A stretch of DNA of 54,313 nucleotides. Origin: a virus. Lineage: Duplodnaviria > Caudoviricetes. The position numbers and the translations under genes are program-made. Shown here one piece after another: positions 10,302 through 49,653 of this stretch. The DNA lies in IMG/VR virus record IMGVR_UViG_3300043395_001470, positions 1 to 54,313 of that record; one strand, given 5' to 3'. Numbering within the stretch: position 1 is the first letter of the stretch; each line of letters begins with the position of its first letter. The notes below the pieces were generated by a model. The model did not search any database. It was not told the origin of the DNA and worked only from the letters and a program-made list of their open reading frames with translations.

Positions 10302-10502
10302 CTATTTAATAATTTCCCAGTGTTCGTTTCCAGTCTTAGGAACCCATGTAAAGTATTTGCGATTGATAGATGCTAGAAAGAGCATCTCATCAGTCTCTTG
10401 TTCTACTTCCATGGCATGAAGTGAATCCATGAGGTTTGCAAATCTGTTCTTTGCTTTAGAACTTTTAGGTTTGATGTTAACGAATTGTTTCTTGGTTTTC
10501 AT
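10302..10502 (-). CDS. Hypothetical protein
   Basis: ORF track; TTGACA-18-TAGACT promoter upstream (about 10549-10578). Confidence 0.65.
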   Translation of the reverse strand: MKTKKQFVNIKPKSSKAKNRFANLMDSLHAMEVEQETDEMLFLASINRKYFTWVPKTGNEHWEIIK

Positions 10503-10551
10503 GATGTTTTTAAGAACTTAGAGTTTGATCTTCAAACCCAACAAAGGTAGT

Positions 10552-10989
10552 CTAAAGGGTCTGATGGGTATCTGTCAAGTAGTTTAAGTATTCTTCATAA
10601 AGCACTTCTTCCATTTGAAATGCTTGTACCTCCCATGGTTGCTCAGAATAGTCCGTCTGAGAGTGGTCTATGCCCCTCCAATACCTCTTTCCTCTCTTAT
10701 CCTTAAGAGCACCCATAACGTGCTGATAAACGTGCCAGAGCTCATGTAGAAGCACTGTGGTATAATGTTCTGGAGTCATTTGATTGTGTAGTTCAATCTC
10801 AAAAGATCTTGGACGATAATCACAATCAGTCACACCAACCCATCCATAAACTTCATCACGCAACATCCCACGATGATTGACACTAATCTCAATTTTGTGT
10901 CGTGGAAGATGTTTTTTGATGAACCATTCAACAACCTTAGTACAACGCCTTTTGCTATAGTTGTACCCACTGGTGTATAGTGTAAGCAA
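10552..10989 (-). CDS. Putative zinc metallopeptidase-like protein (HExxH)
   Basis: LLHELWHVYQH plus downstream QPWEVQA. Confidence 0.6.
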   Translation of the reverse strand: MLTLYTSGYNYSKRRCTKVVEWFIKKHLPRHKIEISVNHRGMLRDEVYGWVGVTDCDYRPRSFEIELHNQMTPEHYTTVLLHELWHVYQHVMGALKDKRGKRYWRGIDHSQTDYSEQPWEVQAFQMEEVLYEEYLNYLTDTHQTL

Positions 10990-11035
10990 ATTCGTAACCA
11001 GGTTTCAATAAGGACACTATAAAGGATTTTTTCTG

Positions 11036-11866
11036 TCAGTGTGAACTCCTATGTGCCAGTTTTTCTACTGCCACAATATCTTTATATTTTTTCTTTTTAC
11101 CGCACGATACTTTATAAATCGCGCCTTGACTATAACCATTTTCTTTTGACCAGTTTGTTAATCCACACTGTTCAATTACGTTTCCATCAGCAAATGTAAT
11201 CTTCCACCACATAGAACGAGAATGATTTTCTCCACTCATTTTTTGTCTTATTTCTAAAGAATGTTTTTTTCCAAAATATGGATTATTTTCTCCACTATTT
11301 CTTTTACTTAACTTTTCTTTAAAATCCTCTGAGACCTTTCTCCCTTTGTTTAATTCACTAATTTTTCTCTTTGTTTCTTCAGAGTGATTTCTACCAAGCA
11401 TAGGATTTCTATTTCTTTTCTTTGCTGCTTCACTCATTTTTGCTCTACTTTCTAAAGACATTTTTTTGCCTGTATGTGCTTTACTTCTTTTTTCTCTTTC
11501 TTCTTCTGATATTTTTTTACCATACATAGGATTATTTTTTCCAGACATCAAAATACTTCTTCTTAACCTTGATGATTCATATAAATGTGAATTTATATAA
11601 GTATTTTTTGATTTTTGAGAATTCATACACCAAAAAGCGGTAATCATTTTTTTGGTTTTCTGGTGGTGTATTCCATACCTTTGAATACAAATTTTTTCTA
11701 ATAGTGCGTGTGCTATATAATGTTCTCTTGCAGTAAGAACAACAATTCTATTGTTTTTTCCAAATATACTTTTTGGAAATATATGGTGTTTTTCTATATA
11801 ACCCTCAGGAGGAGTTCTATTCTCTGCTTTCCTGATAAGATTACAATAAACCTTTAGATAGTTCAT
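11036..11866 (-). CDS. HNH homing endonuclease with NUMOD3 repeats
   Basis: EKHHIFPKS...N...LTAREHYIAH; repeated NPMYGKK/HSEETKRKIS motifs; start re-assigned to MNYLKV. Confidence 0.85.
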   Translation of the reverse strand: MNYLKVYCNLIRKAENRTPPEGYIEKHHIFPKSIFGKNNRIVVLTAREHYIAHALLEKICIQRYGIHHQKTKKMITAFWCMNSQKSKNTYINSHLYESSRLRRSILMSGKNNPMYGKKISEEEREKRSKAHTGKKMSLESRAKMSEAAKKRNRNPMLGRNHSEETKRKISELNKGRKVSEDFKEKLSKRNSGENNPYFGKKHSLEIRQKMSGENHSRSMWWKITFADGNVIEQCGLTNWSKENGYSQGAIYKVSCGKKKKYKDIVAVEKLAHRSSH

Positions 11867-11898
11867 TTCTACTCTAACTGACTGCATTAGTATTTATA

Positions 11899-11952
11899 TT
11901 ACAAAGGAGAGTATTTCTACTCTCCCCACCCGAAGATTGCAGTCAGTCAGGC
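11899..11952 (-). ncRNA. Predicted HEG-associated antisense small RNA, copy 1
   Basis: Lies between CTAAATA (11958-11964) and a terminator hairpin (11906-11925); its segment at 11938-11950 is complementary to the HEG leader at 11874-11886. Confidence 0.5.
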
Positions 11953-11960
11953 AATATTAT

Positions 11961-12065
11961 TTAGATTATAAAATCAAGAGACATTTTAGTTAATCTGACC
12001 ATCCAATTTAAGAATGCTATAAAACTACCAATGAAAATCAATCTGTCCAGCGTGGAGTACCTCAT
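11961..12065 (-). CDS. Small membrane peptide (34 aa, MRYSTLDRLIFIGSF...)
   Basis: Translated by hand; GGTGGAG RBS and promoter upstream. Confidence 0.45.
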   Translation of the reverse strand: MRYSTLDRLIFIGSFIAFLNWMVRLTKMSLDFII

Positions 12066-12161
12066 CGGTTTTGTGTGTCTCCACCTACTATAAAACCTCA
12101 CAGATCACTCTGTGAGGTTCAGTGTGTCAGTTTTTAAGGTGTCACAGGGACTTTAGGATGT

Positions 12162-12374
12162 TTATTGTTTTTCTTGACTTTCTTCGTTTTCTTCTTCCTT
12201 TTTTTCTGGTTCTGGAAGTGTAGTACCAGTTTGTTCTAGATACTCAATTGCACCTTGTACTTTAAGAAGAAGTTCTCTTTTTGATGTAAGTTGATTACTC
12301 AAGATATTCACATCAGAAATCAGTTGTTGATGTTGTTCGATCAGTTGAGTTAAATGTGTTTGTTGTTCAGTCAT
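12162..12374 (-). CDS. Small coiled-coil protein downstream of tail fibre
   Basis: ORF track; CATAAATA late-promoter-like motif at about 12395-12402. Confidence 0.65.
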   Translation of the reverse strand: MTEQQTHLTQLIEQHQQLISDVNILSNQLTSKRELLLKVQGAIEYLEQTGTTLPEPEKKEEENEESQEKQ

Positions 12375-12421
12375 AACTTAGAATCATTTTCGAATATTTA
12401 TGAGGTTACTAGTGAAGGGGA

Positions 12422-12550
12422 CTACTCTCCGTCAGGGATGGATTCCAACGCTTCCCGAATCGTGGTGAAGTCCCACGAACAGCAAGCATCGTCAGAATTC
12501 TCCAGACTCTTAAGCAGGGCCAGTGCCTGTTCCTTAAGGGTGTAAGTCAT
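12422..12550 (-). CDS. Small protein (42 aa, MTYTLKEQALALL...IREALESIPDGE) inside the GC-rich fibre-tip cassette
   Basis: Translated by hand; starts 4 nt after the fibre stop. Confidence 0.5.
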   Translation of the reverse strand: MTYTLKEQALALLKSLENSDDACCSWDFTTIREALESIPDGE

Positions 12551-12554
12551 TTGA

Positions 12555-14462
12555 TTACGCGCTTTCAAGAGCAGCAACTTTGGCCTCAAGGGTTTCGATC
12601 TTGGTCAAGGCTTGCTTGAGTGCCAAGTGGTACATGGCTTGGAGCTTGGCGTTGTCGTAAGAGCGAATGGACCCCTCGTCATCTGTTTCGCCAGTGTCGA
12701 AGATAAGCGAAGGGTCAACGGCTTCTACTTCGTCAACGATATAACCATAGTTTGTTGACTCTGGATTGTTTTTATACGCAAAACTCCGTATCGGTAAGTC
12801 TCGCGCAACATTCCAAGAAATCTCTGGGCTCAGCGGCGCACTATCAATATCTTGCTTGAGGCGACGCTCCGATGTAAGCGAGGTAATCGTGGTGACATCA
12901 CACAAAATGCGATCCGTAAAGCGCACACGCTCAATAGGAGTAGCCGAAGCATCTGTGGCGCCATCTCTGTTGGTGTAAAATCGCAAATAACCGTTTGCGC
13001 GATTCGTGGCAGTATTATCCTGCGTGACAATAATTGCGGCTAGAGTTTTAGAGTTTCCGTTTGTACTTAGCCCTCCAAAAGAAATAACTCCAGCGTTCGC
13101 GTTAGATCCTCCTCTGTAGGCAAGGCCAATACCAGGAGCATTATCGCCACCAATATACGTACCGGCTCCAGTAATAAAACCAGCCGCATTGTACGAGTCA
13201 TAAACATAGTAGTTTTGAATAACGCTTCCATTACTCGTGATCCTCATCCGCTCCGTCGGAGAACTCGCACCATCCGCAGTAGTGGAGAACACTAGGCGGC
13301 CTGGCATGTCGTTGGCGCCAGGGGTGCCGTCGACTTCACACCTGATCTGACCACCAGCTATAAACTCAGTACCATCAGATCCTTGAAAATCAACGCTTCC
13401 CAACAGGTCATTATTTCCCACAAGGGTATTTCCACCTACCGAGCCAGATTTTTGCCTGGCCAGGATTAGATATGGACCGTAAACCGTATCAGAGCTGGTA
13501 ACAGAAAGAATTTGAGCGGTTCCCGTACCTTCGAGTTGAAGTTGGGGAGAGAAACTTGTTGTATTAAAGAAATTGCTACGCGCACTAGACGTACCAACTA
13601 GGAGCCTGCCGGAGCTGTCAACTTTAACTCTCTCAGAACCATTAGTACTTACAGTAAAAACGTTAGCAGTAGAACCACTAATCGTAACACCAGTACCTAA
13701 AGTAGCATTACCACCAGTAAGTACAATACCACTACGAGCAGTTACAATACCAATAGAATCTACATTAGTTACATCTTCATAAGTTAATGTACCACCAACA
13801 GAAACATTACCAGTAAATGTAGCAGCAACACCACTAATATTTCGTGCTGTTACATCAGGAGTTCCACCACTAATACCACTCTGAGAAATACTCAAAGTTC
13901 CAACATTAATCGTATTATTAGTTCCATCAAGAGTAATACTTGAAGTGCCAACAGTCAGAATACCAGTAACTCTTGCATTTCCGTTGACAAGAAGTGCTGT
14001 AGTTCCTGTTCCAGTGATTACTACATCACCAGAAGTATTCCAGGATGGTCCACCAGTTGAAAGTTTTGCTGGTGTTACAGTTCCATCACCAGGAACACTT
14101 ACAGCAACAGCAGGTCCTAATGATACAATCGAACAATCTAAACCAGCACTAGGAGCAGTTGTAAAAGTAATATTAGAACCTGATACAGTGTAATCTGTCA
14201 ATGGTTCTTGGACAATACCACCAAGAACAACTCTTAACTGTTGAGCATTTGCTGGTGTTAATGATACTCCAGAAACAGTAAGAGCAAATGTTTGAGTGGA
14301 ACCGTTAAAGGAACTCTCAATATTGTCAACGATACTTATGTTTTTTGATGATGATGCAGTATAACTTTTCCAAACAACTCCATCCCACTGATAAGTGAAT
14401 CCAGAGGTAGAATCTGCATATAACTGTCCCGTTGTGGGATTATCTGGAAAGTTTAAAGCCAT
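12555..14462 (-). CDS. Tail fibre protein with C-terminal intramolecular chaperone (peptidase S74-type)
   Basis: G/T/S-rich beta repeats, RLLVGT and ERMRITS motifs, SERRLKQDI cleavage motif and terminal coiled coil. Confidence 0.85.
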   Translation of the reverse strand: MALNFPDNPTTGQLYADSTSGFTYQWDGVVWKSYTASSSKNISIVDNIESSFNGSTQTFALTVSGVSLTPANAQQLRVVLGGIVQEPLTDYTVSGSNITFTTAPSAGLDCSIVSLGPAVAVSVPGDGTVTPAKLSTGGPSWNTSGDVVITGTGTTALLVNGNARVTGILTVGTSSITLDGTNNTINVGTLSISQSGISGGTPDVTARNISGVAATFTGNVSVGGTLTYEDVTNVDSIGIVTARSGIVLTGGNATLGTGVTISGSTANVFTVSTNGSERVKVDSSGRLLVGTSSARSNFFNTTSFSPQLQLEGTGTAQILSVTSSDTVYGPYLILARQKSGSVGGNTLVGNNDLLGSVDFQGSDGTEFIAGGQIRCEVDGTPGANDMPGRLVFSTTADGASSPTERMRITSNGSVIQNYYVYDSYNAAGFITGAGTYIGGDNAPGIGLAYRGGSNANAGVISFGGLSTNGNSKTLAAIIVTQDNTATNRANGYLRFYTNRDGATDASATPIERVRFTDRILCDVTTITSLTSERRLKQDIDSAPLSPEISWNVARDLPIRSFAYKNNPESTNYGYIVDEVEAVDPSLIFDTGETDDEGSIRSYDNAKLQAMYHLALKQALTKIETLEAKVAALESA

Positions 14463-14492
14463 CTTATTATACTTTTTAGGTATTTATGTTGA

Positions 14493-15875
14493 TCACCACT
14501 CAACGATTACGAGTCCTGGTGCTCCGTTTGCTCCTGTTGCGCATCCACCCGCGGGTGGAGCAACAATTACACCTCCAGCACCAGATCCATACCCACATCC
14601 AGGGCATCCGGGTTGGATTGTTGTTGGATCAATAGAGTTGCCTCTGGTTCCACCAACTCCAAACGGCCCACTAGCTCCTGCACCTCCAATGGTTACCCCG
14701 GGATCTACTCTATATCCTCGACCATTAAAATGACATGAGATTGTACCGCACTGCAAGGTTGTAGGGAACGTAGCTGTATTTGAGAATATACCATAAGTTG
14801 CTGTTGCTGGAGCACTATTTCCATTAGATCCAGGAGCCCCACCACCAAACCCACCGCAAGCGTCATTGCCAAGGCAAGGACCACTACATCCAATACATCC
14901 ACCATGAGTTAAGAATACTGTAGGACCACCAAAAATTGTATCTCCTCCTGCTCCACCAACAGTCACCGGATAAGAACTACATGCTGGTGGTACTGATAAT
15001 AGTTTTACTGCTGCTGATCCTGCTCCACCACCACCAATAACACATCTTATAGATGGAGGGAGACCTGGAGTTGATCCTCCACCACCAGTGGCAGTAATCT
15101 TAAGACTTGTAGTTCCTGGTGGAACTGTAAAAGTTCCTGGGTTAGTAAATACACAAAATCCACCACCACCAGATAAACCAGTAATAGCACTGGAGGGAAT
15201 ATTAGAAAGTCCCGAACCATTTCCAGAGAAACATGAAGTGGCACAAACGACTCCACCAGTTACTGTTCCAGGAACTGTTGCTGTTCCTGCTGTTATGGTT
15301 CCTCTTATACATCCTGTGGTAGCAGTAATAATACCTGCTGTAACACCTGAAGAATTTAATGTAACAGCTGTTCCAACACGAATATTATCACTATTTCCAT
15401 CAAGTGCGATTGTTCCTTGACCGACTGAAAGAATTCCAGTAACTCTTGCGTTTCCTTCTACCAATAAAGCAGTGGTTCCAATACCAATCGTTACCTTTCC
15501 AATACCATTTGTAGTACCTAATGTAGAAATACCAGTTACATGTAGATTTGCGGTATTTAAGGTATTAGAGTTTGAATCAAAAGTTAAGTCACCATCAGTT
15601 GCAGATGCAGTCATCGTGCCTGATGTTTGAGTGGTGACTACAACTCTTTGAGAACCCGATGCAGCACTTAGAGTTGATCCAGTGTTTGTAAGATTACTTC
15701 CATCTCCAAAAAATTGACTCGCAGTTACTGAAGAACTTACAGAAACATTATTAGTAGTAACGACACCAACAACATTAATACCAGTAGAATTAATTGTAAC
15801 CGCAGAACCAACAACTACATTTTGTGCTGTGGATATGCCTACACCACCTACTAATTGTGCCTTTGTCTGTGACAT
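14493..15875 (-). CDS. Tail fibre/adhesin with Cys-rich glycine-rich C-terminal domain
   Basis: VGVVT/GIGT repeats; GGGG loops; ends GLVIVEW; TATAAATA at 15901-15908. Confidence 0.75.
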   Translation of the reverse strand: MSQTKAQLVGGVGISTAQNVVVGSAVTINSTGINVVGVVTTNNVSVSSSVTASQFFGDGSNLTNTGSTLSAASGSQRVVVTTQTSGTMTASATDGDLTFDSNSNTLNTANLHVTGISTLGTTNGIGKVTIGIGTTALLVEGNARVTGILSVGQGTIALDGNSDNIRVGTAVTLNSSGVTAGIITATTGCIRGTITAGTATVPGTVTGGVVCATSCFSGNGSGLSNIPSSAITGLSGGGGFCVFTNPGTFTVPPGTTSLKITATGGGGSTPGLPPSIRCVIGGGGAGSAAVKLLSVPPACSSYPVTVGGAGGDTIFGGPTVFLTHGGCIGCSGPCLGNDACGGFGGGAPGSNGNSAPATATYGIFSNTATFPTTLQCGTISCHFNGRGYRVDPGVTIGGAGASGPFGVGGTRGNSIDPTTIQPGCPGCGYGSGAGGVIVAPPAGGCATGANGAPGLVIVEW

Positions 15876-15909
15876 TATGACTCGATAGTATCCTTTTTGT
15901 TATTTATAA

Positions 15910-16827
15910 TTAATTTTCTATTTCCTTTACGATTTTCTGATATGCCTCCTCGATTTCTTCCAGAGTAAATGCAATCCTATCTTCATTCAGACGATTAGCA
16001 AGATGGGATTGCATCCCCGAAATTCTCATGGTTGTTGGTTCTAACTTCACATCTCTTTTGATAATTTGGAAATGATCTGGATAAGAATTATTTTTTTCAT
16101 GAACTCCACCAATCACAACCGTTGCTTTCTTATTCAGAGCACGAGCAAAATGTTGACCGCAACTATCACAACCAACGAAGTAATCTGCTTCAGAAATAGC
16201 AGCAGCCCACTCTCTCAAACTCATATCAGGATCGGGAATATACGTCTTTCCGTCATGTGCCTGAGCAGGTCCAAAGTAGATTACATTATATTTCTGCATC
16301 AACTTATCAATCAAAGTATCATACATCGATTGGGGAATGGATCTTAAACTATCGTCAAACATTCCAATAGGATATAAGGTAGCAGTGCTTCCATATGGTT
16401 GAATAATGATTGTCTTTTCTTTTCCTTGTGCTTTCTTTGCCTTATGAATATGTTCTTTTCCTTTTAAAATCTCTGCTTGAGATAGTTTAATAATTGAATC
16501 TGGAAGATCTTTATGATCATGAGTTCCGTTGATTTCCACATCAAATGCTTCCGCAAGTGAAATCTCATTTCGATAATACTTAGGAACCTTATATGGTTCT
16601 GGTGTAATCACACGATCAGCATTCCAAAAATATCTCTCAAAAATTCCTTTATTTTCTGGATTAAAAGTTCTATTTTGAAGTTCTGGAATGCCCCAATACA
16701 TCCAATCCCATCCGCCAACCATTACATACCATTCTTCTTTTGGATGTAACTTGCCATATTTTAAGAGAGCAGGAATAGCAGTTACAACTCTTCCTGCTCC
16801 ACCATCGATGCAAATAACTGTTTTCAT
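15910..16827 (-). CDS. Glycosyltransferase, GT-B fold, GT9/heptosyltransferase-like
   Basis: N-terminal DGGAGRVVTAIPAL; IIIQPYGS; SLREWAAAISEADYFVGCDSCGQHFARAL. Confidence 0.7.
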   Translation of the reverse strand: MKTVICIDGGAGRVVTAIPALLKYGKLHPKEEWYVMVGGWDWMYWGIPELQNRTFNPENKGIFERYFWNADRVITPEPYKVPKYYRNEISLAEAFDVEINGTHDHKDLPDSIIKLSQAEILKGKEHIHKAKKAQGKEKTIIIQPYGSTATLYPIGMFDDSLRSIPQSMYDTLIDKLMQKYNVIYFGPAQAHDGKTYIPDPDMSLREWAAAISEADYFVGCDSCGQHFARALNKKATVVIGGVHEKNNSYPDHFQIIKRDVKLEPTTMRISGMQSHLANRLNEDRIAFTLEEIEEAYQKIVKEIEN

Positions 16828-18518
16828 GCTTTTCTCACAAGGAAGTTTCCAATCACAAGATAATCAATATCCATATTTAAAAATGAACGAATAGCATCTT
16901 GTGGTGTTTCGATAATTGGTTCACCATTATCGTTGAATGAGGTATTTAGAAGAACTGGAATACCCGAGATTTCATTAAACTTACGAAGAAGTGTAGTAAC
17001 ATGAGGACTTAAATGTTCATTTACAGTTTGAATCCTACAAGTCTTATCTTCATGAGTGATTGCTCCAAGAGTATCAATCTTATCATCTTTTACTGTCAGA
17101 GAGTAAAGCATGTAAGGAGAGTTGAAGTCTTCATTAAAGTATTCTGTCAGATGTTCCTCCAACATAATACCTGCAAAAGGTCTCCAATATTCACGATGTT
17201 TTACTCGATGATTCATCACATCCTTATTTTCTTTTGGTCCAGGATGCATTAAAAGTGAACGAGATCCAAGTGCCCTTGGACCAAACTCAGAACGATTCTG
17301 GAACCACCCAATAATCTTATTATTATTCAGTTCTTGTGCGGTAAACTCACAAAGATCTTCAAAGTTTTTATATCTTTCATAAGTAACTCCCGAATCATTC
17401 AGTGATGATTCAATCTCATCATTTGAGTATTCTTTACCCAGAAGAGCAATATTATCAGGAAGTTCGATTGGTTGATTATTTTTAAATTGACCAAAACATG
17501 CTGCACCAAAATGAAGACCTACATCATTAGGACATGGTGGAACATGAATATCCTTAAACAATCCACTTTGTTTGAGAACAGAGTTGCCAAGAACATTCAA
17601 GAATGAACCACCAGAGAAGCAAATATAGTCCTCAAGATAAGAGTTTTTCTTCAGTTCTGTAACATAGTCCAACAACGCAAGTTCGAAGTTCTTTTGAATA
17701 ATGAAAGCTTTCTCATCAGCATTTCGGAACTTAAATGCATTTGTTGGATCTTTCACAAAAGTCACATAAGGAATATCATCATAAGCAAGATCCTTTGACA
17801 TTTGATACATGAGGTTTTCATCAGTAAAGTTCATAGAACTTCCGTATGCCGAAAGACCCATGATCTTACCATCCCAAGTCTCACGATACTTTTCATCCCA
17901 TCCATCAATATTTTTTTGAACTTTTTCACAATAAATCTGATGAGAAAGTGAGTGATAAAATCCACCAAAATCATTTGATCCTGGAATACCATTAAAGAAT
18001 CGGAAGATGCCCTTTTCCTTATTAAAATAACCAATAGAGTTGGTCTCTGCCATCATGGTTCCAGTAAACCCACAATTAAATGTGAGAGAACCAGCACCAT
18101 CTAAAGTGATAAATGACCCTTCATTAAATTTTGAAGAAAACACTGAAGCAGCAGCATGACTTAAGTGGTGAGAAACCAACTTAAACTCTGCATTTGGAAA
18201 TCTCTCCTCAATCATTCTCTTTACAGTCCCTTCGTACCATTTCTTATAGAACATGGTCACACACATTGAAGGAACACAAACCAAATCTACGTCTTCTCCA
18301 CTGATGTTTCCAGCAGATAAACAATAGTCGATTGAGTTTTGTGGAAAGTTTCCATCATGCTTTTTACGAGTAAGTCGTTCTTCAGAAATAGAGCAGATAT
18401 GTTTTCCATTTACAAACAAAGTTGCCCCAGCATCATGACACCATGTGGGTTCACCTTGTTCGTTGACTGATTTATCTGCCCTCCAATCAAAAGAACCATA
18501 AAGACCAAGAGTAATCAT
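16824..18518 (-). CDS. Carbamoyltransferase (NodU/CmcH/TobZ family)
   Basis: HDAGA, SEERLTRKKH, HHLSHAA, LDGAG, GKIMGLSAYG, EFGPRALGSRS, RPFA, LNTSFN motifs. Confidence 0.92.
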   Translation of the reverse strand: MITLGLYGSFDWRADKSVNEQGEPTWCHDAGATLFVNGKHICSISEERLTRKKHDGNFPQNSIDYCLSAGNISGEDVDLVCVPSMCVTMFYKKWYEGTVKRMIEERFPNAEFKLVSHHLSHAAASVFSSKFNEGSFITLDGAGSLTFNCGFTGTMMAETNSIGYFNKEKGIFRFFNGIPGSNDFGGFYHSLSHQIYCEKVQKNIDGWDEKYRETWDGKIMGLSAYGSSMNFTDENLMYQMSKDLAYDDIPYVTFVKDPTNAFKFRNADEKAFIIQKNFELALLDYVTELKKNSYLEDYICFSGGSFLNVLGNSVLKQSGLFKDIHVPPCPNDVGLHFGAACFGQFKNNQPIELPDNIALLGKEYSNDEIESSLNDSGVTYERYKNFEDLCEFTAQELNNNKIIGWFQNRSEFGPRALGSRSLLMHPGPKENKDVMNHRVKHREYWRPFAGIMLEEHLTEYFNEDFNSPYMLYSLTVKDDKIDTLGAITHEDKTCRIQTVNEHLSPHVTTLLRKFNEISGIPVLLNTSFNDNGEPIIETPQDAIRSFLNMDIDYLVIGNFLVRKA

Positions 18519-18521
18519 AGA

Positions 18522-19244
18522 TTAACCATTCCCCATATCAAATGCAAATTGTGCTCGTTGTCCGTCTTGAAGAACATAATGGAAAAAGATTTGATGATAA
18601 TATAAACCTTCTTTTTCTACCTTTGCTCCATACCAAGTTCTTTTATATTCTCTTGGAAGAGGTTCCCTCCAGTGTGGTCTCTCACAACCTTTGTAAATCA
18701 TACCATCACCAGGACCAAGAATCACCGAACGATTCTCACCTTTCTTGATGATATTTGCTTTGGTCTTAGGGTCATCATAAGTATCTGGAGTTTTAATCCA
18801 AATAGGCCATGGATTACTTACATTTGAACTTACATGAATCGTAACTGAAATCTCACAAGCAGGACGATCTGCATGATTGGTCAGTGCTTGCCCTGGATTA
18901 TAAAACCTATCATAATAGTAAGTATTATAAAGTTTCTTACCGATTGCTTTCTCAAGTTTTAAACGAATCTGAGAATGGGCAAACTTGTAAGGAGGCCAAT
19001 AGTATCTTGAAGTTGATCCTTCAACCTGTCCTTCTAATGGAATGTGAGAAAACTTCTCAATCTTTCCGTAGTAATTGTATTGACCTTTGATTTCTGGTGG
19101 ATCACAATAAAGATCTTTTGGATCCCACAGATTTTTTAGAACCAGATATCCATCTCGATCAAACTGTTCATTATTTGTTGGCGATGAACCTGAGTTAATT
19201 CTTTCCTGCCAATCGATGGCATCTTGTGTCATTTGTTCTGCCAT
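18522..19244 (-). CDS. 2OG-Fe(II) oxygenase
   Basis: HxD (HADRPACEISVT), distal His (HWREP), QIFFHYV. Confidence 0.8.
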   Translation of the reverse strand: MAEQMTQDAIDWQERINSGSSPTNNEQFDRDGYLVLKNLWDPKDLYCDPPEIKGQYNYYGKIEKFSHIPLEGQVEGSTSRYYWPPYKFAHSQIRLKLEKAIGKKLYNTYYYDRFYNPGQALTNHADRPACEISVTIHVSSNVSNPWPIWIKTPDTYDDPKTKANIIKKGENRSVILGPGDGMIYKGCERPHWREPLPREYKRTWYGAKVEKEGLYYHQIFFHYVLQDGQRAQFAFDMGNG

Positions 19245-19247
19245 AAT

Positions 19248-19955
19248 TTAAATCTCCTTTGATTTTATTCCCCCCAAAGTCCACCCTTCACCGGGACATT
19301 CTTTTGAGAATTTTTGTTGTTCTCCATTATTCCAAAGTTTTCTGCCAATTTTTGATTGACCTATTTTGTCACGGACATTTGGTGGAGTTACTTTTCCGTA
19401 ATTTGGATTGTTTTCTCCTTTGTTGTTTTCTCTAAATTTTGCTTTTGACTCTTCTGAATGTTTTCTACCTTTAAAAGGATGACCTAATGTTCTGAATTGT
19501 TCTAAAGTTTTTTGCCTTATCAATTCTTTTGTTTCTTGAGAATGACTTTTTCCATAAAAATGATTGTCTTCTCTATATTTTTTTATTCCAGGTCTTCCTT
19601 TTGAAGATTTTGAAAGTTTTTCTCTGGTTTCTTTTGAATGTTTTCTTCCGTAAAATGGATTATCTTCACCAAACTTTTTTTCTGCATAATAAAATCCAGT
19701 GGTTTTTTGTCTTGCCTTATTTGCAAAATGTGGATTTTTATCTACTTGATAAAACTTATGAAGATTTACTTCAGCCTGAAGTGCTTCTTCTCTTGTGGAA
19801 AAAGTTTCAAGAATTATCTTATGAGAAGGGTTGAAAGTTTCATCGTGATAAGAACCAAGATAGTTATCTTCTTCAGGAAGACATTTACAGGTTCTACAAC
19901 CTATGTAACCTCTACCAAACTCCTCATAAGAATAATAAACATAATGATTTTCCAT
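19248..19955 (-). CDS. GIY-YIG (Seg-like) homing endonuclease with NUMOD3 repeats
   Basis: HYVYYSYEEFGRGYIG...YLGS...E...N; NPFYGRKHS repeats. Confidence 0.8.
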   Translation of the reverse strand: MENHYVYYSYEEFGRGYIGCRTCKCLPEEDNYLGSYHDETFNPSHKIILETFSTREEALQAEVNLHKFYQVDKNPHFANKARQKTTGFYYAEKKFGEDNPFYGRKHSKETREKLSKSSKGRPGIKKYREDNHFYGKSHSQETKELIRQKTLEQFRTLGHPFKGRKHSEESKAKFRENNKGENNPNYGKVTPPNVRDKIGQSKIGRKLWNNGEQQKFSKECPGEGWTLGGIKSKEI

Positions 19956-19971
19956 AGTATTATTGGTCCTA

Positions 19972-19998
19972 GATGGAGTTATTTATATTACCTCCATC
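19972..19998 (-). promoter_or_regulatory. Late promoter TATAAATA in the loop of a GATGGAG/CTCCATC hairpin
   Basis: Direct reading; architecture like T4 HEG translational-control hairpins. Confidence 0.6.
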
Positions 19999-20003
19999 GG
20001 GGT

Positions 20004-20639
20004 TCAGCGCCACCGGTTTCCCACGCACCATCCAACTAGTGACTTTCTGACACCACTAGTTACTTTCTGAACCCTATGTTGTGTCCTTGAATCAAAGAGA
20101 ATAATCGCACCTCTTTGACGAGGAGCAATATAAGATTTTCCACTCTCTCCAAGAAGTTGGAGATTGCCGCCTTCATAAGTATCGGGATCAGAAAGAAGCA
20201 AACTAAAAGATAACTTTCTTACTTTTTCGCAACTTTCATTAATAAAATCCTGAGCAATCTCATTTCCATTTCCACGATTACCTGCAGATACTGGCTTATA
20301 GAGACTATCAATACCTGCGTCATTATGCCAACCATAATACTCCCCTTCTCCATACACAGTATATTGAAGTGATTCGCCATCAATATTATCTAAATCATAT
20401 AAAAAGTTTTCACGATTTGCTCGTTGCACATAATGCCAAACAAATCCACCAATCCAGTGAGATGTTGGCACCCATGCATTTTTTGCGTTTCTTTTATCTT
20501 TATCTACAGTTCCATAATCTCCACCACCCACTCGTGAATCTTGAAGGTGTGGATCAAAGTTTTCTGCAAGGTCTTCTTCAATTATATCAATAATCTTATT
20601 CGGGATATCACTGTAGTACCAAATCGACTGATATGCCAA
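20004..20639 (-). CDS. 2OG-Fe(II) oxygenase (prolyl-4-hydroxylase-like)
   Basis: YGWHND...RKLSFSLLLS...YEGG...HRVQKVTSGVRKSLVGW; TTG start. Confidence 0.85.
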   Translation of the reverse strand: MAYQSIWYYSDIPNKIIDIIEEDLAENFDPHLQDSRVGGGDYGTVDKDKRNAKNAWVPTSHWIGGFVWHYVQRANRENFLYDLDNIDGESLQYTVYGEGEYYGWHNDAGIDSLYKPVSAGNRGNGNEIAQDFINESCEKVRKLSFSLLLSDPDTYEGGNLQLLGESGKSYIAPRQRGAIILFDSRTQHRVQKVTSGVRKSLVGWCVGNRWR

Positions 20640-20668
20640 AAGTCAATCTCCTTATGTTATTCAGACAC

Positions 20669-20697
20669 ATTATATATCAGTTTTTTTATAGTGTCAA
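20669..20697 (-). promoter_or_regulatory. Consensus sigma70-type early promoter TTGACA-17-TATAAT
   Basis: -35 at 20692-20697 (overlaps HEG stop), -10 at 20669-20674. Confidence 0.75.
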
Positions 20698-21317
20698 TTT
20701 ACTTTTTCAACCTTTATAATGTCCTTATATTTTTTTCTATAACCAAGTTTTACATTATAAATTCCAGAATAATGATATTCACTATCTTTCATAAAATCCA
20801 TAATATTTTTAATGATAATACTTTTACCATTATCAAAAGTAATTTTATGAGGACTTGATTTTGATGCACTCACTTTTCTTTTATGTTCTTCGGTACAAGT
20901 TCTACCTTTTCTAACCGCAGACATTTTTGCTTTTGTTTCTTCACTTAATTTTTTACCTCTATTACTTTCAGCAATCTTATCATAAACCCACTGTGGCCTT
21001 TTCTTACCAAGATTTGCTTGACGAAGTTTTTCTCTTGTTTCCTTACTTCTTACAGCACCAGAAGCACCATCTCCACCGTCACTTTTATTTCTTAAGATTC
21101 CATTATTTAAATCAATCCTACCAAACATTAAGATATAAAGTTTCTCTAAAAGAAATGCCTCTTCTTCAGTGAGATTATCTTTAATAATTTTAACTCTTGA
21201 TTTATCTCTTGGTGGTTTGACTTCTTTTGGACCTTTTGTATAGGCTCTTTTTCCAGAACCTTTACCGATATAATATGGACTATGATCTTCCCGTAAATAC
21301 GAGTAAACGTAATACAT
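20694..21317 (-). CDS. GIY-YIG-like homing endonuclease with NUMOD3 repeats
   Basis: YYVYSYLRED.SPYYIGKG...R...E..YI..FGR...LRNKSDGGDG; SEETKAKMS. Confidence 0.8.
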   Translation of the reverse strand: MYYVYSYLREDHSPYYIGKGSGKRAYTKGPKEVKPPRDKSRVKIIKDNLTEEEAFLLEKLYILMFGRIDLNNGILRNKSDGGDGASGAVRSKETREKLRQANLGKKRPQWVYDKIAESNRGKKLSEETKAKMSAVRKGRTCTEEHKRKVSASKSSPHKITFDNGKSIIIKNIMDFMKDSEYHYSGIYNVKLGYRKKYKDIIKVEKVN

Positions 21318-21349
21318 TTCTACTCAAATGAACCGCAGAAATATTTATA

Positions 21350-21400
21350 CTAAAAAGGAGGGACTTTCACCCTCCTCCTGAAGTTTGCGGTTCATCAGGT
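21350..21400 (-). ncRNA. Predicted HEG-associated antisense small RNA, copy 2
   Basis: ATAAATA at 21406-21412; terminator 21357-21375 plus T-tract; segment 21386-21395 complementary to the leader at 21328-21337. Confidence 0.5.
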
Positions 21401-21414
21401 TTAGTTATTTATGT

Positions 21415-21759
21415 TTATACCGAAGGATTTACTACAGGATTTTCTACCAATATCCAGTTTACAGTATCTTCATCCCATTCATAATGAGATCCTTCTGGGG
21501 CATCAGTTGGCATAGGAACTGGTGCTTCCCATCTAAACTCATCATTAAGAATCCATGATGGATAAGGTGCATCGGGATAGAAAGCATTTGCAGTTGCATC
21601 GTAGTTATCATCACGATTGACTGGATAACCAATTGTATTAATATCCCAAGGAATTATATCACATTCAGTTGTCCAATATGGATCAAGGTCTGACTGACCA
21701 TCCCATTCAATATTATTGACGACTTTATTTGTTTCTTTAGATACTGCTGCGTAATTCAT
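21415..21759 (-). CDS. Tail-fibre-associated small protein (assembly-chaperone-like)
   Basis: PYPSWILN...WEAPVPMP...YEWDE pattern; directly downstream of the Gly-rich adhesin. Confidence 0.6.
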   Translation of the reverse strand: MNYAAVSKETNKVVNNIEWDGQSDLDPYWTTECDIIPWDINTIGYPVNRDDNYDATANAFYPDAPYPSWILNDEFRWEAPVPMPTDAPEGSHYEWDEDTVNWILVENPVVNPSV

Positions 21760-21794
21760 GGTTTTTCTCCTTTAAAGTTTTATGGATATTTAGA

Positions 21795-22610
21795 TTACCA
21801 CTCAACGATTACGAATCCTGGTGATCCTGTTCCAGCTGCTACTGGGCCTCCATCCCCGGAGGATCCTCCGGCACCAAATCCAGTAGCATTTCTAAAGCAA
21901 TAACCACCACCAGTGCCAAAATAACTAGATTGACCATGACCACTGCTGCCATAGATCGAACCAGGAGCTCCACCTGCCGATGTGACCAAGGTACAAGAAC
22001 ATTGTCTAACTTGTCCGGGATTACTAATTAGATGAGTGGCAGTACTAGGAACACATCCATAATTACCTTGAGATCCTCCACTAAAGCAGCCGCCGCCACA
22101 TCCAGTACACCCACCTTCTGTTAAGAATACTGTAGGACCACCAAAAACAGTATCTCCTCCTGCTCCACCAATAGTCACCGGATAAGAACTACATGCTGGT
22201 GGTACGGTTAAGTATTTAACTGCTGCTGCTCCTGCTCCGCCACCTCCAGATCGGTACTGATCCCCCCCGAAGAGGGGGCAGCTAGAACCATTACCACCAC
22301 CACCAATTGCAGTAATCTTTAAAGTCGTTGTTCCTGGTGGAACACTAAAGGTTCCTGGTGAACTAAAAGTACATACTCTAATACCACCTAAAGAACCAGT
22401 AATGGCACCTGAAGGAATATTAGAAAGTCCCGAACCACTTCCAGAGAAACATGAAGTAGCACAAACAACTCCACCAGTTACTGTTCCTGGAACTGTTGCT
22501 GTTCCTGCTGTTAAAGTACCAGTTACACATCCTGTAGCAGCAGTGGATACTCCAGCATTTACATTTCTACTGTCGTCTATTACTGTACAACCGTTGACTT
22601 TAATTGCCAT
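21795..22610 (-). CDS. Cys-rich glycine-rich adhesin/tail protein, paralog of 14493..15875
   Basis: Shares near-identical DNA blocks with 14493..15875; ends GFVIVEW. Confidence 0.75.
   Translation of the reverse strand: MAIKVNGCTVIDDSRNVNAGVSTAATGCVTGTLTAGTATVPGTVTGGVVCATSCFSGSGSGLSNIPSGAITGSLGGIRVCTFSSPGTFSVPPGTTTLKITAIGGGGNGSSCPLFGGDQYRSGGGGAGAAAVKYLTVPPACSSYPVTIGGAGGDTVFGGPTVFLTEGGCTGCGGGCFSGGSQGNYGCVPSTATHLISNPGQVRQCSCTLVTSAGGAPGSIYGSSGHGQSSYFGTGGGYCFRNATGFGAGGSSGDGGPVAAGTGSPGFVIVEW
22120..22513. repeat. Duplicated blocks shared with the 14493..15875 gene (22120-22205 vs 14908-14993; 22414-22513 vs 15196-15295)
   Basis: Direct nucleotide comparison, few mismatches. Confidence 0.85.
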
Positions 22611-32071: not shown

Positions 32072-32143
32072 AGCCCCCGACAAGATTTGAACTTGCGACA
32101 TCGGCTTTACAAAAGCCGTGCTCTACCACTGAGCTACAAGGGC
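32072..32143 (-). tRNA. tRNA-Thr(UGU)
   Basis: GCCCTTG acceptor, TAGCTCAGTGGTAGAGC D-arm, CGGCT-TTTGTAA-AGCCG anticodon arm, GTTCAAAT T-loop; CCA not encoded. Confidence 0.92.
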
Positions 32144-32946: not shown

Positions 32947-33031
32947 TGGGCAAGGGGGGACTCGAACCCCCACGGGATTACTCCCAGCGCATTTTAAGTG
33001 CGATACGGCTACCGGATTACGTCACTCGCCC
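32947..33031 (-). tRNA. tRNA-Leu(UAA)
   Basis: GGGCGAG acceptor, CGCA-CTTAAAA-TGCG anticodon arm, long variable arm, GTTCGAGT T-loop. Confidence 0.9.
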
Positions 33032-47101: not shown

Positions 47102-48124
47102 ATGGCAAGACCTTACTTCAGACAAGTTCCTAACTTTGAATATGTCAGCAGAAACTCTGGAGAACAAAACATCTCCGATTATATTGCTGTCAAAAATCTT
47201 TTCAAGAGAGGAAAGTTAAGAGATGATATCTTCGGAAATCTTAACTACTTCACAAAGTATAAGATCGTCGGTGATGAAAGACCTGATAATGTTGCATTTA
47301 AATTGTATGGAGATTCAACTCTTGATTGGGTTGTTCTTCTCTCCAATAACATTCTGAATATTCAAACAGAATGGCCTATGACTCAGAAAACCTTTGATCA
47401 AGTTATGCTTGAAAAATATGGTTCTTACGAAAATCTTTACTCTGGTATTCATCATTATGAAACAGAAGAAATTAGAGATTCTAAAGGAAGAATAGTTCTC
47501 AGAAGTGGACTCAGGATCTCACCAACTTGGAAAACAAACGGTAACTTTGTAGAGATTGTCAACTCTCAGATTGCTGTTATCTCATCAGGAGATTCAGTGA
47601 ATCCTTCATCAACTGTAACTGTTTATCTTGTAAATGGTATTCCTGGATTGGAAATAGGAAGTCAAGTTGCAATCAATAATGTTACCGAGAATCAATACAA
47701 TGGAAGACAAGTTGTAACAGAAATCCTTGCTCAGAATGGAAATGTTGTAACTGGTTTTAGATACAAACTATCATTTACTCCAAATATTGCATCTCCAACA
47801 TTATCAAATCCAAGAAAAGAAGAAGCATTATTCTTAGTTCCAGAAACATCTGCAGTTACAGCAAACTCTTATTATTATGAGTATTGGGATGCTGGTCTTG
47901 GATATTCAGTCTATGTTCCATCAACTTCTTTTGTGTCAACAGTAACCAATCACGAATACGAACTTCAGATTCAACAAGAAAGAAGAAATATTTTTACTCT
48001 GAAACCACAATATCTGAATGTCATCTTTAATGATCTCGATGATATTATGCCATATAAAAAAGGTGGCAGTCAGTATGTGAATGCCACCTTGAAGAGAGGA
48101 GAAAATATTAGACTGTTTGAATAG
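47102..48124 (+). CDS. gp53: Baseplate wedge subunit gp53
   Basis: YFRQVPNFEY...DERPDNVAFKLYGD...WVVLLSN...EWP...HHYET. Confidence 0.85.
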   Translation: MARPYFRQVPNFEYVSRNSGEQNISDYIAVKNLFKRGKLRDDIFGNLNYFTKYKIVGDERPDNVAFKLYGDSTLDWVVLLSNNILNIQTEWPMTQKTFDQVMLEKYGSYENLYSGIHHYETEEIRDSKGRIVLRSGLRISPTWKTNGNFVEIVNSQIAVISSGDSVNPSSTVTVYLVNGIPGLEIGSQVAINNVTENQYNGRQVVTEILAQNGNVVTGFRYKLSFTPNIASPTLSNPRKEEALFLVPETSAVTANSYYYEYWDAGLGYSVYVPSTSFVSTVTNHEYELQIQQERRNIFTLKPQYLNVIFNDLDDIMPYKKGGSQYVNATLKRGENIRLFE

Positions 48125-48626
48125 ATTTTTTATTCCAAGGAATCCTTCCTTTGGTTGCTTCACTTATTTTTCTTTTAGTTTCTTCAGAATGTTTCTTTCC
48201 AGGTTTACCTTTTCTTTCTTGATGAATTTTTCTAAGTCTTTCTATACCCTCTGGAGTTTGTCTCGGTTTTCCTTTATTAGACTCTCCAATTTTTCTTTTA
48301 TGACTTTCACTAAGTTTTCTTCCTTTTAAGGAAGCACACATTTTTCTCCTTTCTTCATCCATAATAACACCAGAAACTCCATCACCACCATTTGTCTTAT
48401 TGTGAAGGATTCCAGTTCCTAAATCTTTTCTTCCAAACACAGCAATCATATAGATTTCGTGCTTAAATGCTTCTTCTTCAGTTAGATTTTGTTTGAGGAA
48501 CATTCTTTTATTTTTTTCTGGTGGATAAAATCCATTATGCTTTTGGTGGATTCTTCTACCTTTACCTTTACCAACATAATAAGGAGTTCCATCTTCACGC
48601 AAATAGGCGTAAGTGTAATAATTCAT
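48108..48626 (-). CDS. GIY-YIG-like homing endonuclease with NUMOD3 repeats
   Basis: YYTYAYLREDGTPYYVGKG...E..MI..FGR...LHNKTNGGDG; HSEETKRKIS. Confidence 0.8.
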   Translation of the reverse strand: MNYYTYAYLREDGTPYYVGKGKGRRIHQKHNGFYPPEKNKRMFLKQNLTEEEAFKHEIYMIAVFGRKDLGTGILHNKTNGGDGVSGVIMDEERRKMCASLKGRKLSESHKRKIGESNKGKPRQTPEGIERLRKIHQERKGKPGKKHSEETKRKISEATKGRIPWNKKSIQTV

Positions 48627-48659
48627 AATTCTACTCTGTAAGTCGCAATATTATTTATA

Positions 48660-48709
48660 CAAGAAAAGGTGCCGAAGCACCCTTTCCACCCATAATGCGA
48701 CTTACAGGT
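48660..48709 (-). ncRNA. Predicted HEG-associated antisense small RNA, copy 3
   Basis: CTAAATA at 48715-48721; UUCG-loop terminator 48663-48686; segment 48696-48707 complementary (12/12) to the leader at 48636-48647. Confidence 0.5.
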
Positions 48710-48717
48710 AATGTTAT

Positions 48718-49653
48718 TTAGTCGTTGGCTAAACGAGAAAAATATGCCATCGCATCATCTTCATCCTCATCAGAAGTTTCAATCTTAGGAAGTGAAGGAG
48801 ACTTGCTGCGAGCAAAGGATTGCTCCAGTTCTGCAATCACATTCTCTTCCTTAGAAGGAGTTTGAGTGTAAGATTCATACTCATCTTCCTGCTCTTGAAC
48901 AGCAGCACGAGCAGACTTCTGACCCAGAACATACTTCAGACGCTTCTCAAGATCCTCATAAGACTTGAACTGATCAGGAGCAACGATAGCAGAGAGAGAA
49001 TACTCTTTCTTCCAAAGTGCTTCAAGTGCGTCATCATCATCCAGCAGTGCAGAAGGAGAATCAAACTCAGACTTATCATAGTTCCAGTAACCTTCAACCT
49101 TACGAATCTTCAGACGGAAGTTTGCTCCACCCCAGAAATCAAAAGGATTGATAGGTTCTTCATCTTCAAACTCAGGTTGCATTGCATTCAGGATCTTATC
49201 AAAGATCTTCTTACCAAACTTGAACAGGAAGACTTTACCTTCGTTCTCAGGATGGGCAGGATCCTTTACAACGTAGATGTTTGCAAAGTAAGACAGTTTG
49301 CGCTTCTGCTTACGAACAGTTTCTTTATCCTTCTCACTACCACTGTTCCAGAGTTCACGGTTGTGCTCGGACACAGGATCCTTCTGACCAATAGTAGTCA
49401 GAGAGTTCTCGATGTACCAACCACCGTTACCTTGGAATGCATGAGAATACATCTTGACCCAGGGGAGTTCTTCACCTTCAGGTGCAGGAAGGAAACGAAT
49501 AATTGCGGAACCAACACCAGTCTTATCCATTTCTGGTTTCCAGAAACGTTCATCAGCACCACCAGAACCAGTGCTCATTTTTTCTACTTCCTTCACCAGT
49601 TTCTCAGTGAGAGAACCCAGTTTAGATTGCTTTTTCAGATTTTCGAAAGACAT
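48718..49653 (-). CDS. gp32: Single-stranded DNA-binding protein gp32
   Basis: DERFWKP...IRFLP...HAFQG.GGWYIENS...FGKKIFDKI...GANFRLK...NYDKSEF; acidic tail. Confidence 0.95.
   Translation of the reverse strand: MSFENLKKQSKLGSLTEKLVKEVEKMSTGSGGADERFWKPEMDKTGVGSAIIRFLPAPEGEELPWVKMYSHAFQGNGGWYIENSLTTIGQKDPVSEHNRELWNSGSEKDKETVRKQKRKLSYFANIYVVKDPAHPENEGKVFLFKFGKKIFDKILNAMQPEFEDEEPINPFDFWGGANFRLKIRKVEGYWNYDKSEFDSPSALLDDDDALEALWKKEYSLSAIVAPDQFKSYEDLEKRLKYVLGQKSARAAVQEQEDEYESYTQTPSKEENVIAELEQSFARSKSPSLPKIETSDEDEDDAMAYFSRLAND

Follow-up and report, generated by a model that had tools for sequence, protein, structure and literature searches.

A stretch of 54,313 nucleotides, the IMG/VR virus record IMGVR_UViG_3300043395_001470 (hereafter the window; classed as linear and about 26% complete), carries on its minus strand three copies of a cassette of about 100 bases, each placed directly in front of a homing-endonuclease-like gene. 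The cassette combines two late-type promoter boxes, two hairpins and a pair of complementary arms; three of its helices co-vary across relatives, and they do so as RNA folds of the gene strand. On the strength of these comparisons, it is beyond reasonable doubt that the pairing of the upstream arm with the leader of the downstream gene is selected at the RNA level. The window stems from a T4-like cyanophage, whose nearest named relative is the freshwater Synechococcus phage S-SRM01 of the family Kyanoviridae. Among the selfish elements of large phages, homing endonucleases are the main ones, and, to our knowledge, limitation of their dose is known from only a few T-even cases. We favour, at about even chances, a model in which the upstream arm would act as an anti-leader both in cis and in trans.

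From 5′ to 3′, the cassette consists of a late-promoter box (P1), a hairpin (H1), a terminator-like hairpin (T), a late promoter (P2), the leader and the ATG. P1 is a TAAATA box preceded by two variable bases; 5–6 nt further on, CCTG, a variable stretch and GCA form the 5′ arm. This is followed by a short partner of CCTG (CGGG, CAGG or TGGG), by the GC-rich hairpin T with its T tract, and by P2 with the sequence TATAAATA. Four nucleotides past P2 stand TGC, the complement of the variable stretch and xAG, which together form the 3′ arm, and then AGTAGAA and, after 0–2 nt, the ATG. A first-pass annotation of this DNA had claimed three minus-strand copies of such a layout, and reading of all three loci bore this out.

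Copy 1 precedes the gene of an HNH-type homing endonuclease (11036–11866, minus strand, stop included; 276 aa from a conserved MNYLK start). On the same strand, its P1 is the late-promoter-like box TCTAAATA (11958–11965), with a predicted start at the G at 11952. H1 covers 11928–11952 and includes the 5′ arm CCTGACTGACTGCA (11951–11938), the 3′ part of which (..CTGCA) lies in the loop. The GC-rich hairpin T (11904–11927) is followed by a U-rich tract (11903–11899) and by P2, a consensus T4-type late promoter (11891–11898; predicted start, G at 11885). The leader (11864–11886) is made up of the 3′ arm TGCAGTCAGTTAG (11886–11874), the purine-rich AGTAGAA (11873–11867) and the ATG (11866–11864). 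The two arms, first described as complementary at 12 of 13 positions with a G-U mismatch, form 13 pairs including one G-U.

The pattern of the 3′ half of the cassette occurs three times in the window and in none of 100 shuffles, which excludes chance. A covariance model of the cassette (R1), run with filters off at E ≤ 1, recovered exactly these three sites in the window, with 88.9, 84.1 and 78.4 bits.

Relatives of the cassette and co-variation of its arms

Relatives were collected in two samples. The first was based on the 3′-half pattern, which forced TATAAATA, TGC and AGTAGAA and which at least 119 IMG/VR stretches match. It comprised 121 matches on the loci of relatives and the three window copies, and 123 of these 124 had at least 80 nt of upstream sequence. 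An ungapped complement of the 3′ arm with at most two mismatches was found upstream in 93/123 and TAAATA...CCT in 91, the rest of the 123 being chance matches inside coding sequence. Downstream of the 93 cassettes lie 82 complete open reading frames (ORFs), corresponding to 73 distinct proteins, 71 of them with at least 100 aa; Pfam domains among those 71 were NUMOD3 (44), I-HmuI NUMOD-like (14), GIY-YIG (11), HNH_3 (4) and HNH (3). The cassette almost always precedes what appear, by their sequence, to be homing-endonuclease-like genes, and it is common to HNH and GIY-YIG nucleases as first claimed, with one arm type serving both kinds of gene.

The second sample forced no motif: homologs of two of the window endonucleases were collected by protein search, and the upstream regions of the resulting 109 loci were examined. 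In the first 100 of these (L123–L222), model R1 placed a cassette directly at the start of the homolog in 24 and gave nine further matches elsewhere. In these relatives TGC and GCA are replaced jointly (TAC/GTA, AAC/GTT), CCTG shifts together with both of its partners, and AGTAGAA becomes AATAGAA, AGCAGAA and similar. AGTAGAA, TGC/GCA and CCTG, first taken for a fixed scaffold, are thus present in the window copies but vary in relatives found without forcing them. The P2 box is still TATAAATA in 34 of the 35 alignment rows outside the original pattern and in 116/118 cassettes overall. Among cultured phages, S-SRM01 carries six copies, whose arms all differ and each of which stands in front of an endonuclease-like ORF, and the marine phage S-B68 (host WH 7803) carries one, between the DNA polymerase gene and uvsX, with CTAAATA as P2. 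An unusually dense array of cassette-headed genes, with at least seven model matches, was seen on one 19-kb IMG/VR contig (L016 and L190).

The R1 alignment contains 122 matches, 118 of them distinct, from 96 of 229 sources, chosen so as to include the window and every source that has a distinct cassette; the forced pattern accounts for 83 of the 118 rows. In this alignment, the helix between arm and leader comprises 17 pairs, of which 15 show changes on both sides and none is invariant. Its cells are paired in 97.4% of cases, as compared to 36–53% when the partner is slid by one to three columns. No shuffle out of 500 reached any of the five observed measures, a control that overstates significance, as the alignments were fitted to the structures tested and the sequences are related. 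A second model (R2), covering H1 and T, yielded 120 matches, 116 of them distinct. All six pairs of H1 show double changes, with 88.2% of cells paired; the outermost pair is weak (46/115 cells unpaired). The six pairs of T likewise all show double changes, with 93% paired. The alignments therefore support the proposed co-variation of a guide and its target strongly, and also the CCTG stem, which was said to display the variable segment: H1 co-varies across relatives and holds the anti-leader in its loop. As far as can be read from these alignments, one segment, the 5′ arm, has two co-varying partners, of which one is local, in H1, and the other distal, in the leader.

An alignment-free comparison of 32 arm types gave a mean of −21.6 kcal/mol for cognate arm-leader duplexes vs. 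−9.6 kcal/mol (sd 3.9) for non-cognate ones. The cognate partner ranked first for 22/32 arm types and second to fourth for the rest, where the competitors are near-identical types. Of the arm positions, the six opposite the first bases of the mRNA keep almost purely to Watson-Crick pairs, and those on the stem side tolerate G-U. We also considered whether arms are orthogonal within a genome, since only 1/88 non-cognate pairs within genomes reaches −16 kcal/mol vs. 8.6% of 3972 pairs between genomes. This was dismissed as evidence, since a given locus is prone to have one arm type across genomes and can be present only once in each.

Non-Watson-Crick pairs allow the strand to be read. On the gene strand, G-U/U-G outnumber A-C/C-A by 110 to 13 in the long-range helix, by 65 to 6 in H1 and by 54 to 19 in T. 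This bias indicates that the pairing RNA is transcribed in the direction of the endonuclease gene, and on the excess in all three helices an RNA fold on the opposite strand was rejected.

Promoter boxes, terminator-like hairpin and predicted folds

The first-pass annotation had assigned the cassette its own upstream promoter and an internal terminator, and both assignments gain support from the sequence. The window contains 37 TAAATA motifs on the coding strand, as against 11 on the opposite one, and in 22 of the 37 cases a gene start follows within 60 nt. At a distance of 17–32 nt, TATAAATA, CATAAATA, GATAAATA, AATAAATA or CTAAATA stands before tail-fibre and other ordinary genes. Among the 118 distinct cassettes, the P1 box is kept in 114; its forms are AATAAATA (26), ACTAAATA (25), TATAAATA (18), GATAAATA (18), TCTAAATA (14), CATAAATA (13) and CCTAAATA (1), with three rows lacking a box. 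In locus L154 and in S-B68, the HEG (homing endonuclease gene) has CTAAATA as its sole promoter (P2). The T4 late promoter is described as an 8-bp TATA box about one helical turn before the start, followed by an AT-rich stretch, and for Aeh1 a late consensus has been recorded that has a/gC instead of TA.

The context downstream of the two boxes is also alike. For P1 and P2, respectively (n = 114), T stands at +5 in 101 and 108, a purine at +6 in 111 and 111, and C at +7 in 106 and 101. The arm-leader duplex starts at +5 after P1 in 78/114 and at +5 after P2 in 75/114, which places both arms within a base of the predicted 5′ ends of two transcripts. In 46/117 cassettes, a frame open over the 70 nt upstream ends with the TAA of the P1 box, so that the box and the stop codon of the preceding gene often overlap; in copy 3 this TAA is the stop codon of a gene for a gp32-type single-strand DNA-binding protein (SSB). 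Immediately before P1, an intrinsic terminator consisting of a hairpin and a T run was found in 7/117 cassettes, after one false call in SSB coding sequence had been removed by eye. From its context, P1 looks like a working late-type promoter.

The T hairpin has 6–12 pairs in 80/81 unique cassettes, with one showing no fold. As a co-varying, GC-rich hairpin followed by a U tract, it may terminate transcription. By direct reading, the T hairpins of copies 1 and 2 (11904–11927, 21356–21376) agree with the stated criteria of a generic terminator scan, yet they are absent from its list of sites.

Folding predictions were made for the 81 unique cassettes. Two adjacent hairpins form between P1 and P2 in 81/81, and the H1 loop contains or adjoins the arm's 3′ part (..GCA). 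When the RNA extends from the predicted P1 start to ATG+33, the long-range helix is part of the minimum-free-energy fold, again in 81/81. On these models, cis pairing would be certain in any read-through transcript. The arms bracket P2, so that a transcript initiated there lacks the 5′ arm, and its 3′ arm starts at +5/+6 after the box. The earlier statement that the layout differs from the T4 case thus holds for P1, H1 and T, which are extra, but not for transcripts with both arms, which fold the T4-type helix.

Proposed action in cis and in trans

In the model we favour, each cassette would be a self-contained, portable control of the dose of an HEG through RNA-RNA pairing. The perfect late promoter P2 would make the HEG mRNA, whose first 12–17 nt are the 3′ arm, running into the purine-rich ribosome-binding region. 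P1 (NNTAAATA) would be a second late-type promoter upstream on the same strand, followed after 5 nt by H1 and then by T, so that the unit from P1 to T would give a two-hairpin RNA of about 55–60 nt; the same structure would form the 3′ end of any mRNA from an upstream gene that ends at T. The exact complement of the 5′ end of the mRNA would be presented by the loop of H1 together with the 5′ strand of its stem. Pairing of the IS10 RNAs RNA-OUT and RNA-IN nucleates between a loop and a 5′ end, and the predicted small RNA could pair with the leader in trans in the same manner, the loop contacting the 5′ end first and the stem then being invaded. Transcripts that read through T would form the same helix in cis, as in T4 I-TevI and Aeh1 mobE. 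Either duplex would abut or cover the ribosome-binding region and hold down synthesis of the nuclease. The firing of P1, termination at T, pairing in trans and repression are all steps that we infer from sequence.

A precedent for the trans branch is IS10/Tn10, where RNA-OUT blocks ribosome binding at the 5′ end of RNA-IN (PMC5006887). There, as predicted for the cassette, a short structured RNA is complementary to the 5′-end initiation region of the mRNA for a selfish element's enzyme. RNA-OUT acts in trans and scales with copy number (PMC5006887), and the cassette RNA would presumably act in trans as well. Unlike in IS10, the anti-leader is encoded upstream of its target as an inverted repeat of the same strand, as the G-U bias indicates, and not on the opposite strand; the complementarity extends over 12–17 nt vs. 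35 nt, and the cassette small RNA is a predicted one. The cassette RNA may work like RNA-OUT by analogy, but on account of its same-strand G-U bias it would not be a member of the cis-antisense kind. The label "antitoxin-like", which the cassette had received initially, is likewise an analogy.

The cis logic of arm-leader pairing has already been noted elsewhere. Late promoters inside hairpins are reported to mediate translational control of T4 I-TevI, I-TevII, I-TevIII, segB, e and soc and of Aeh1 mobE (PMC2988022). In line with these cases, as far as PMC2988022 describes them, the inverted arms of the cassette bracket a late promoter, so that the 5′ arm is missing from late transcripts. Longer transcripts are predicted to form a helix over the leader and the ribosome-binding region, and the genes controlled are again homing endonucleases of T4-like phages. 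Dassa et al. 2009 (PMC2677866) reported hairpins in the 5′ UTRs of 15/16 free-standing endonucleases at "fractured gene" loci of the GOS data, ten of which contain TATAAATA; two complementary motifs upstream of these metagenomic endonucleases were taken there as mobE-type hairpins acting in cis. Their setting is also environmental and cyanophage-like, and their hairpins are common to different endonuclease types and loci.

It is a serious possibility, on balance a doubtful one, that the cassette is such a lock and nothing else. The 5′ arm would then act only in upstream transcripts that read through T, with the helix masking the leader and the ribosome-binding region; only the late mRNA initiated at P2 would be translated, T would insulate the upstream unit, P1 and H1 would be accessory or vestigial, and there would be no functional small RNA. 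Besides the experimental precedents, the interpretation by Dassa et al. and the predicted helix in every fold, this is supported by the 46 cassettes whose P1 box closes an upstream frame, so that upstream mRNAs would run straight into the arm. Moreover, the two halves of the cassette were always found adjacent, which is needed for action in cis and not for action in trans.

A cis lock, however, has no role for a P1 box with a P2-like context, for a co-varying H1 and for a terminator-like hairpin between the arms, which always travel together, and a T in this position would remove most of the transcripts that the lock should silence. In addition, seven cassettes have a terminator right before P1. 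The cassette differs from the T4 and Aeh1 hairpins, as far as these are described, in that a complete terminator-like hairpin sits in the loop of the long helix, and in that a late-type promoter of its own stands at a fixed spacing before the 5′ arm, which also takes part in a separate co-varying hairpin that displays the anti-leader; the whole is a sequence-conserved portable unit with variable, co-varying arms. The upstream promoter, internal terminator and second hairpin also set the cassette apart from the hairpins as described by Dassa et al. (PMC2677866), whose Supplementary Figure S4 may contain the same motif. Distant homologs provide a further comparison, read by eye. At L185, two 10-nt arms directly flank the GATAAATA box, and at L140, L142 and L148 simple arms stand directly at the promoter in a small hairpin containing TATAAATA, in each case without P1, H1 or T. 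This argues that these three parts are unnecessary for a cis mechanism. At other distant homologs (L137–L141, L147), a GGGG-rich leader complementary to the 3′ strand of the upstream terminator was noted, likewise by eye.

We favour the dual anti-leader model because a cis mechanism leaves the conserved package of P1, H1 and T unexplained. Taken together, these parts have the look of a small-RNA gene, with a loop that complements the target at its 5′ end. More specifically, a late small RNA of about 55–60 nt may seize the 5′ end of its cognate HEG mRNA in trans by its hairpin loop, with orthogonal arm pairs dosing each nuclease separately, and genomes with the same arm, or leftover modules, could silence an incoming nuclease in co-infection; this we propose tentatively, at somewhat less than an even chance of being right. 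If true, silencing between same-arm genomes would amount to copy-number inhibition, or even anti-homing immunity, for homing endonucleases.

Several observations weigh against the dual model. The long-range fold is on average 11 kcal/mol better than H1 plus T, and with such an equilibrium preference action in cis alone would explain the co-variation of the arms. The helix ends about 6–9 nt before the ATG, reaching the purine-rich ..AGAG and leaving the start codon open, and it does not bury a strong Shine-Dalgarno sequence, in which it also differs from the T4 and Aeh1 cases as described. The mean unpaired probability of positions −14 to +3 drops from 0.55 in the leader initiated at P2 to no less than 0.35 in the RNA from P1 to ATG+33. 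The loop-toehold logic of H1 would also serve strand invasion in cis, and two late promoters would give a fixed ratio of small RNA to mRNA with no obvious timing switch. Concerning T, the U tract beyond the longest stem holds only 3–6 T in 8 nt, and the generic terminator scan gave five sites in 10500–22500, none of them at the T hairpins of copies 1 and 2. Among the sequencing runs compared with the window (23 of DNA type and one of RNA), the sole RNA run (X24, contigs only, word share 0.06) provided seven contigs over 10500–22500, none of them on a cassette; the discrete RNA of roughly 50 nt that had first been predicted was not seen in it, and the run is uninformative on a small RNA.

We regard it as improbable that the cassette is mainly a recombination or insulation module, i.e. 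a terminator-promoter unit for swapping endonuclease ORFs between loci, in which RNA pairing would be secondary. The mobility of the cassette speaks for such a role. Among the 20 arm types with at least two unique cassettes, 13 precede more than one HEG family and follow several upstream sequences, and similarity between cassettes stops at the P1 box and at the ATG. On this evidence, the cassette with both arms moves and recombines as a unit. In addition, a co-occurring phage variant lacks 10989–12033, a segment with the HNH gene, all of cassette 1 and some 70 nt of upstream sequence, and has 73 other letters instead. Its joint from 10988 to 12034 was present in 4/4 runs, including the RNA run, and in runs X2 and X5 it was deeper than the endonuclease-bearing form. 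Two other joints in run X2 (11877 to 21352 and 19764 to 21342) were rejected as recombination events; with low depth and sides of 22–34 letters, they were taken as assembly joins across shared cassette sequence.

A comparable proposal exists for the PeSL cassettes of T4-like phages, which have been proposed as mediators of shuffling (PMC4122927) and which, like the present cassette, are short conserved terminator-plus-promoter units, repeated within a genome, bordering variable genes and tied to modular exchange. A recombination module, however, needs identity and not complementarity, and it leaves the 15/17 long-range and 6/6 H1 compensatory pairs and the G-U bias unexplained. As described in PMC4122927, PeSLs have early promoters, no co-varying long-range arms and no tie to endonuclease genes. 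The defining order of a PeSL, a terminator directly followed by an early sigma-70-type promoter, is not that of the cassette, which has the late TATAAATA box in 116/118 cases.

That the inverted arms are DNA-level operators around P2 for the endonuclease or another protein, as in I-TevI, which is reported to repress its own late promoter via an operator resembling its homing site (PMC2988022), is highly improbable despite their flanking position, since the 110 to 13 ratio of G-U to A-C in the arms is meaningless for duplex DNA, the arms lie about 55–65 bp apart, a third partner in H1 co-varies too, and one arm type stands before HNH and several GIY-YIG-type families, which together with the G-U bias led us to reject a nuclease-specific operator.

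With regard to known RNAs, the statement that the cassette is not a described RNA family agrees with Rfam: at the gathering threshold the window gave two tRNAs only, and at E ≤ 1 the three cassette loci gave no match. No description of a small-RNA module of promoter, hairpin and terminator was found in the literature searched; Figure S4 of PMC2677866 and a table of 10,006 candidate IMG/VR viral RNAs (PMC10690425) may contain the motif. None of the words "promoter", "terminator", "hairpin" and "transcriptom" is used in the genome paper on S-SRM01. CfrI of cyanophage S-PM2, described as a cis-antisense RNA of about 225 nt between psbA and F-CphI (Millard et al. 2010), is likewise a cyanophage non-coding RNA linked to a homing endonuclease gene, but as described it has a different architecture and no sequence relation to the cassette.

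The cassette is abundant, absent from Rfam and serves HNH and several GIY-YIG-type families interchangeably. An RNA from P1 to T, if there is one and if it works in trans, would be the first small RNA encoded by a phage to be dedicated to the control of homing endonucleases and a same-strand, inverted-repeat analogue of transposon antisense control. It would also offer a natural set of at least 32 orthogonal small-RNA/leader pairs of 12–17 nt, useful as compact regulators. Should the cassette act in cis only, it would still be the best-supported case of co-variation for a T4-type lock, and one in which the lock travels as a mobile module.

Further copies and neighbouring genes in the window

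Copy 2 (21315–21413, minus strand) begins with P1 CATAAATA at 21413–21406, followed by H1 (21399–21377) with the 5′ arm at 21399–21386, T (21376–21356), P2 (21349–21342), the 3′ arm (21337–21325), AGTAGAA (21324–21318) and the ATG (21317–21315). Its gene (20694–21317, minus strand) encodes a homing-endonuclease-like protein of 207 aa with NUMOD3 and an N-terminus judged by eye to be GIY-YIG-like. Copy 3 (48624–48722, minus strand) has P1 ACTAAATA at 48722–48715, H1 at 48710–48687 with the 5′ arm at 48708–48696, T at 48686–48663, P2 at 48659–48652, the 3′ arm at 48647–48636, AGTAGAA at 48635–48629 and the ATG at 48626–48624. It precedes a homing-endonuclease-like gene (48108–48626, minus strand) of 172 aa with NUMOD3 and a match to PHROG 314. 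NUMOD3 motifs were found in all three downstream ORFs (276, 207 and 172 aa), and a PHROGs scan of the 276-aa and 172-aa ORFs matched homing-endonuclease families.

Gene calls at these loci can extend into the cassette. The longest ORF of copy 1 begins at an in-frame ATG at 11887, with ..ATGC.. in the leader (11885–11887), 21 nt before the MNYLK start, and hence inside the cassette. The S-SRM01 annotation likewise begins a homing endonuclease CDS inside a cassette (record position 192466). A fourth endonuclease-like gene of the window (19248–19955, minus strand; NUMOD3 ×4, PHROG 314) has no cassette; it is preceded only by TATAAATA, at 24 nt from its ATG, within the 48 nt that separate it from a preceding 2OG-Fe(II) oxygenase gene.

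The window further encodes the gp32-type SSB, tail-fibre proteins and a baseplate wedge subunit. The two tRNA genes lie on the minus strand at 32072–32143 and 32947–33031 (Rfam RF00005, 67.8 and 47.5 bits). Finally, contigs of two runs join 14960–14961 and 22172–22173, two places with 33 letters in common; in one of the joins 7212 bases are skipped, and the other leads back by 7212. The sites at 14960 and 22172 lie in tail-fibre-like or structural genes, suggesting a repeat used in rearrangement or in assembly.

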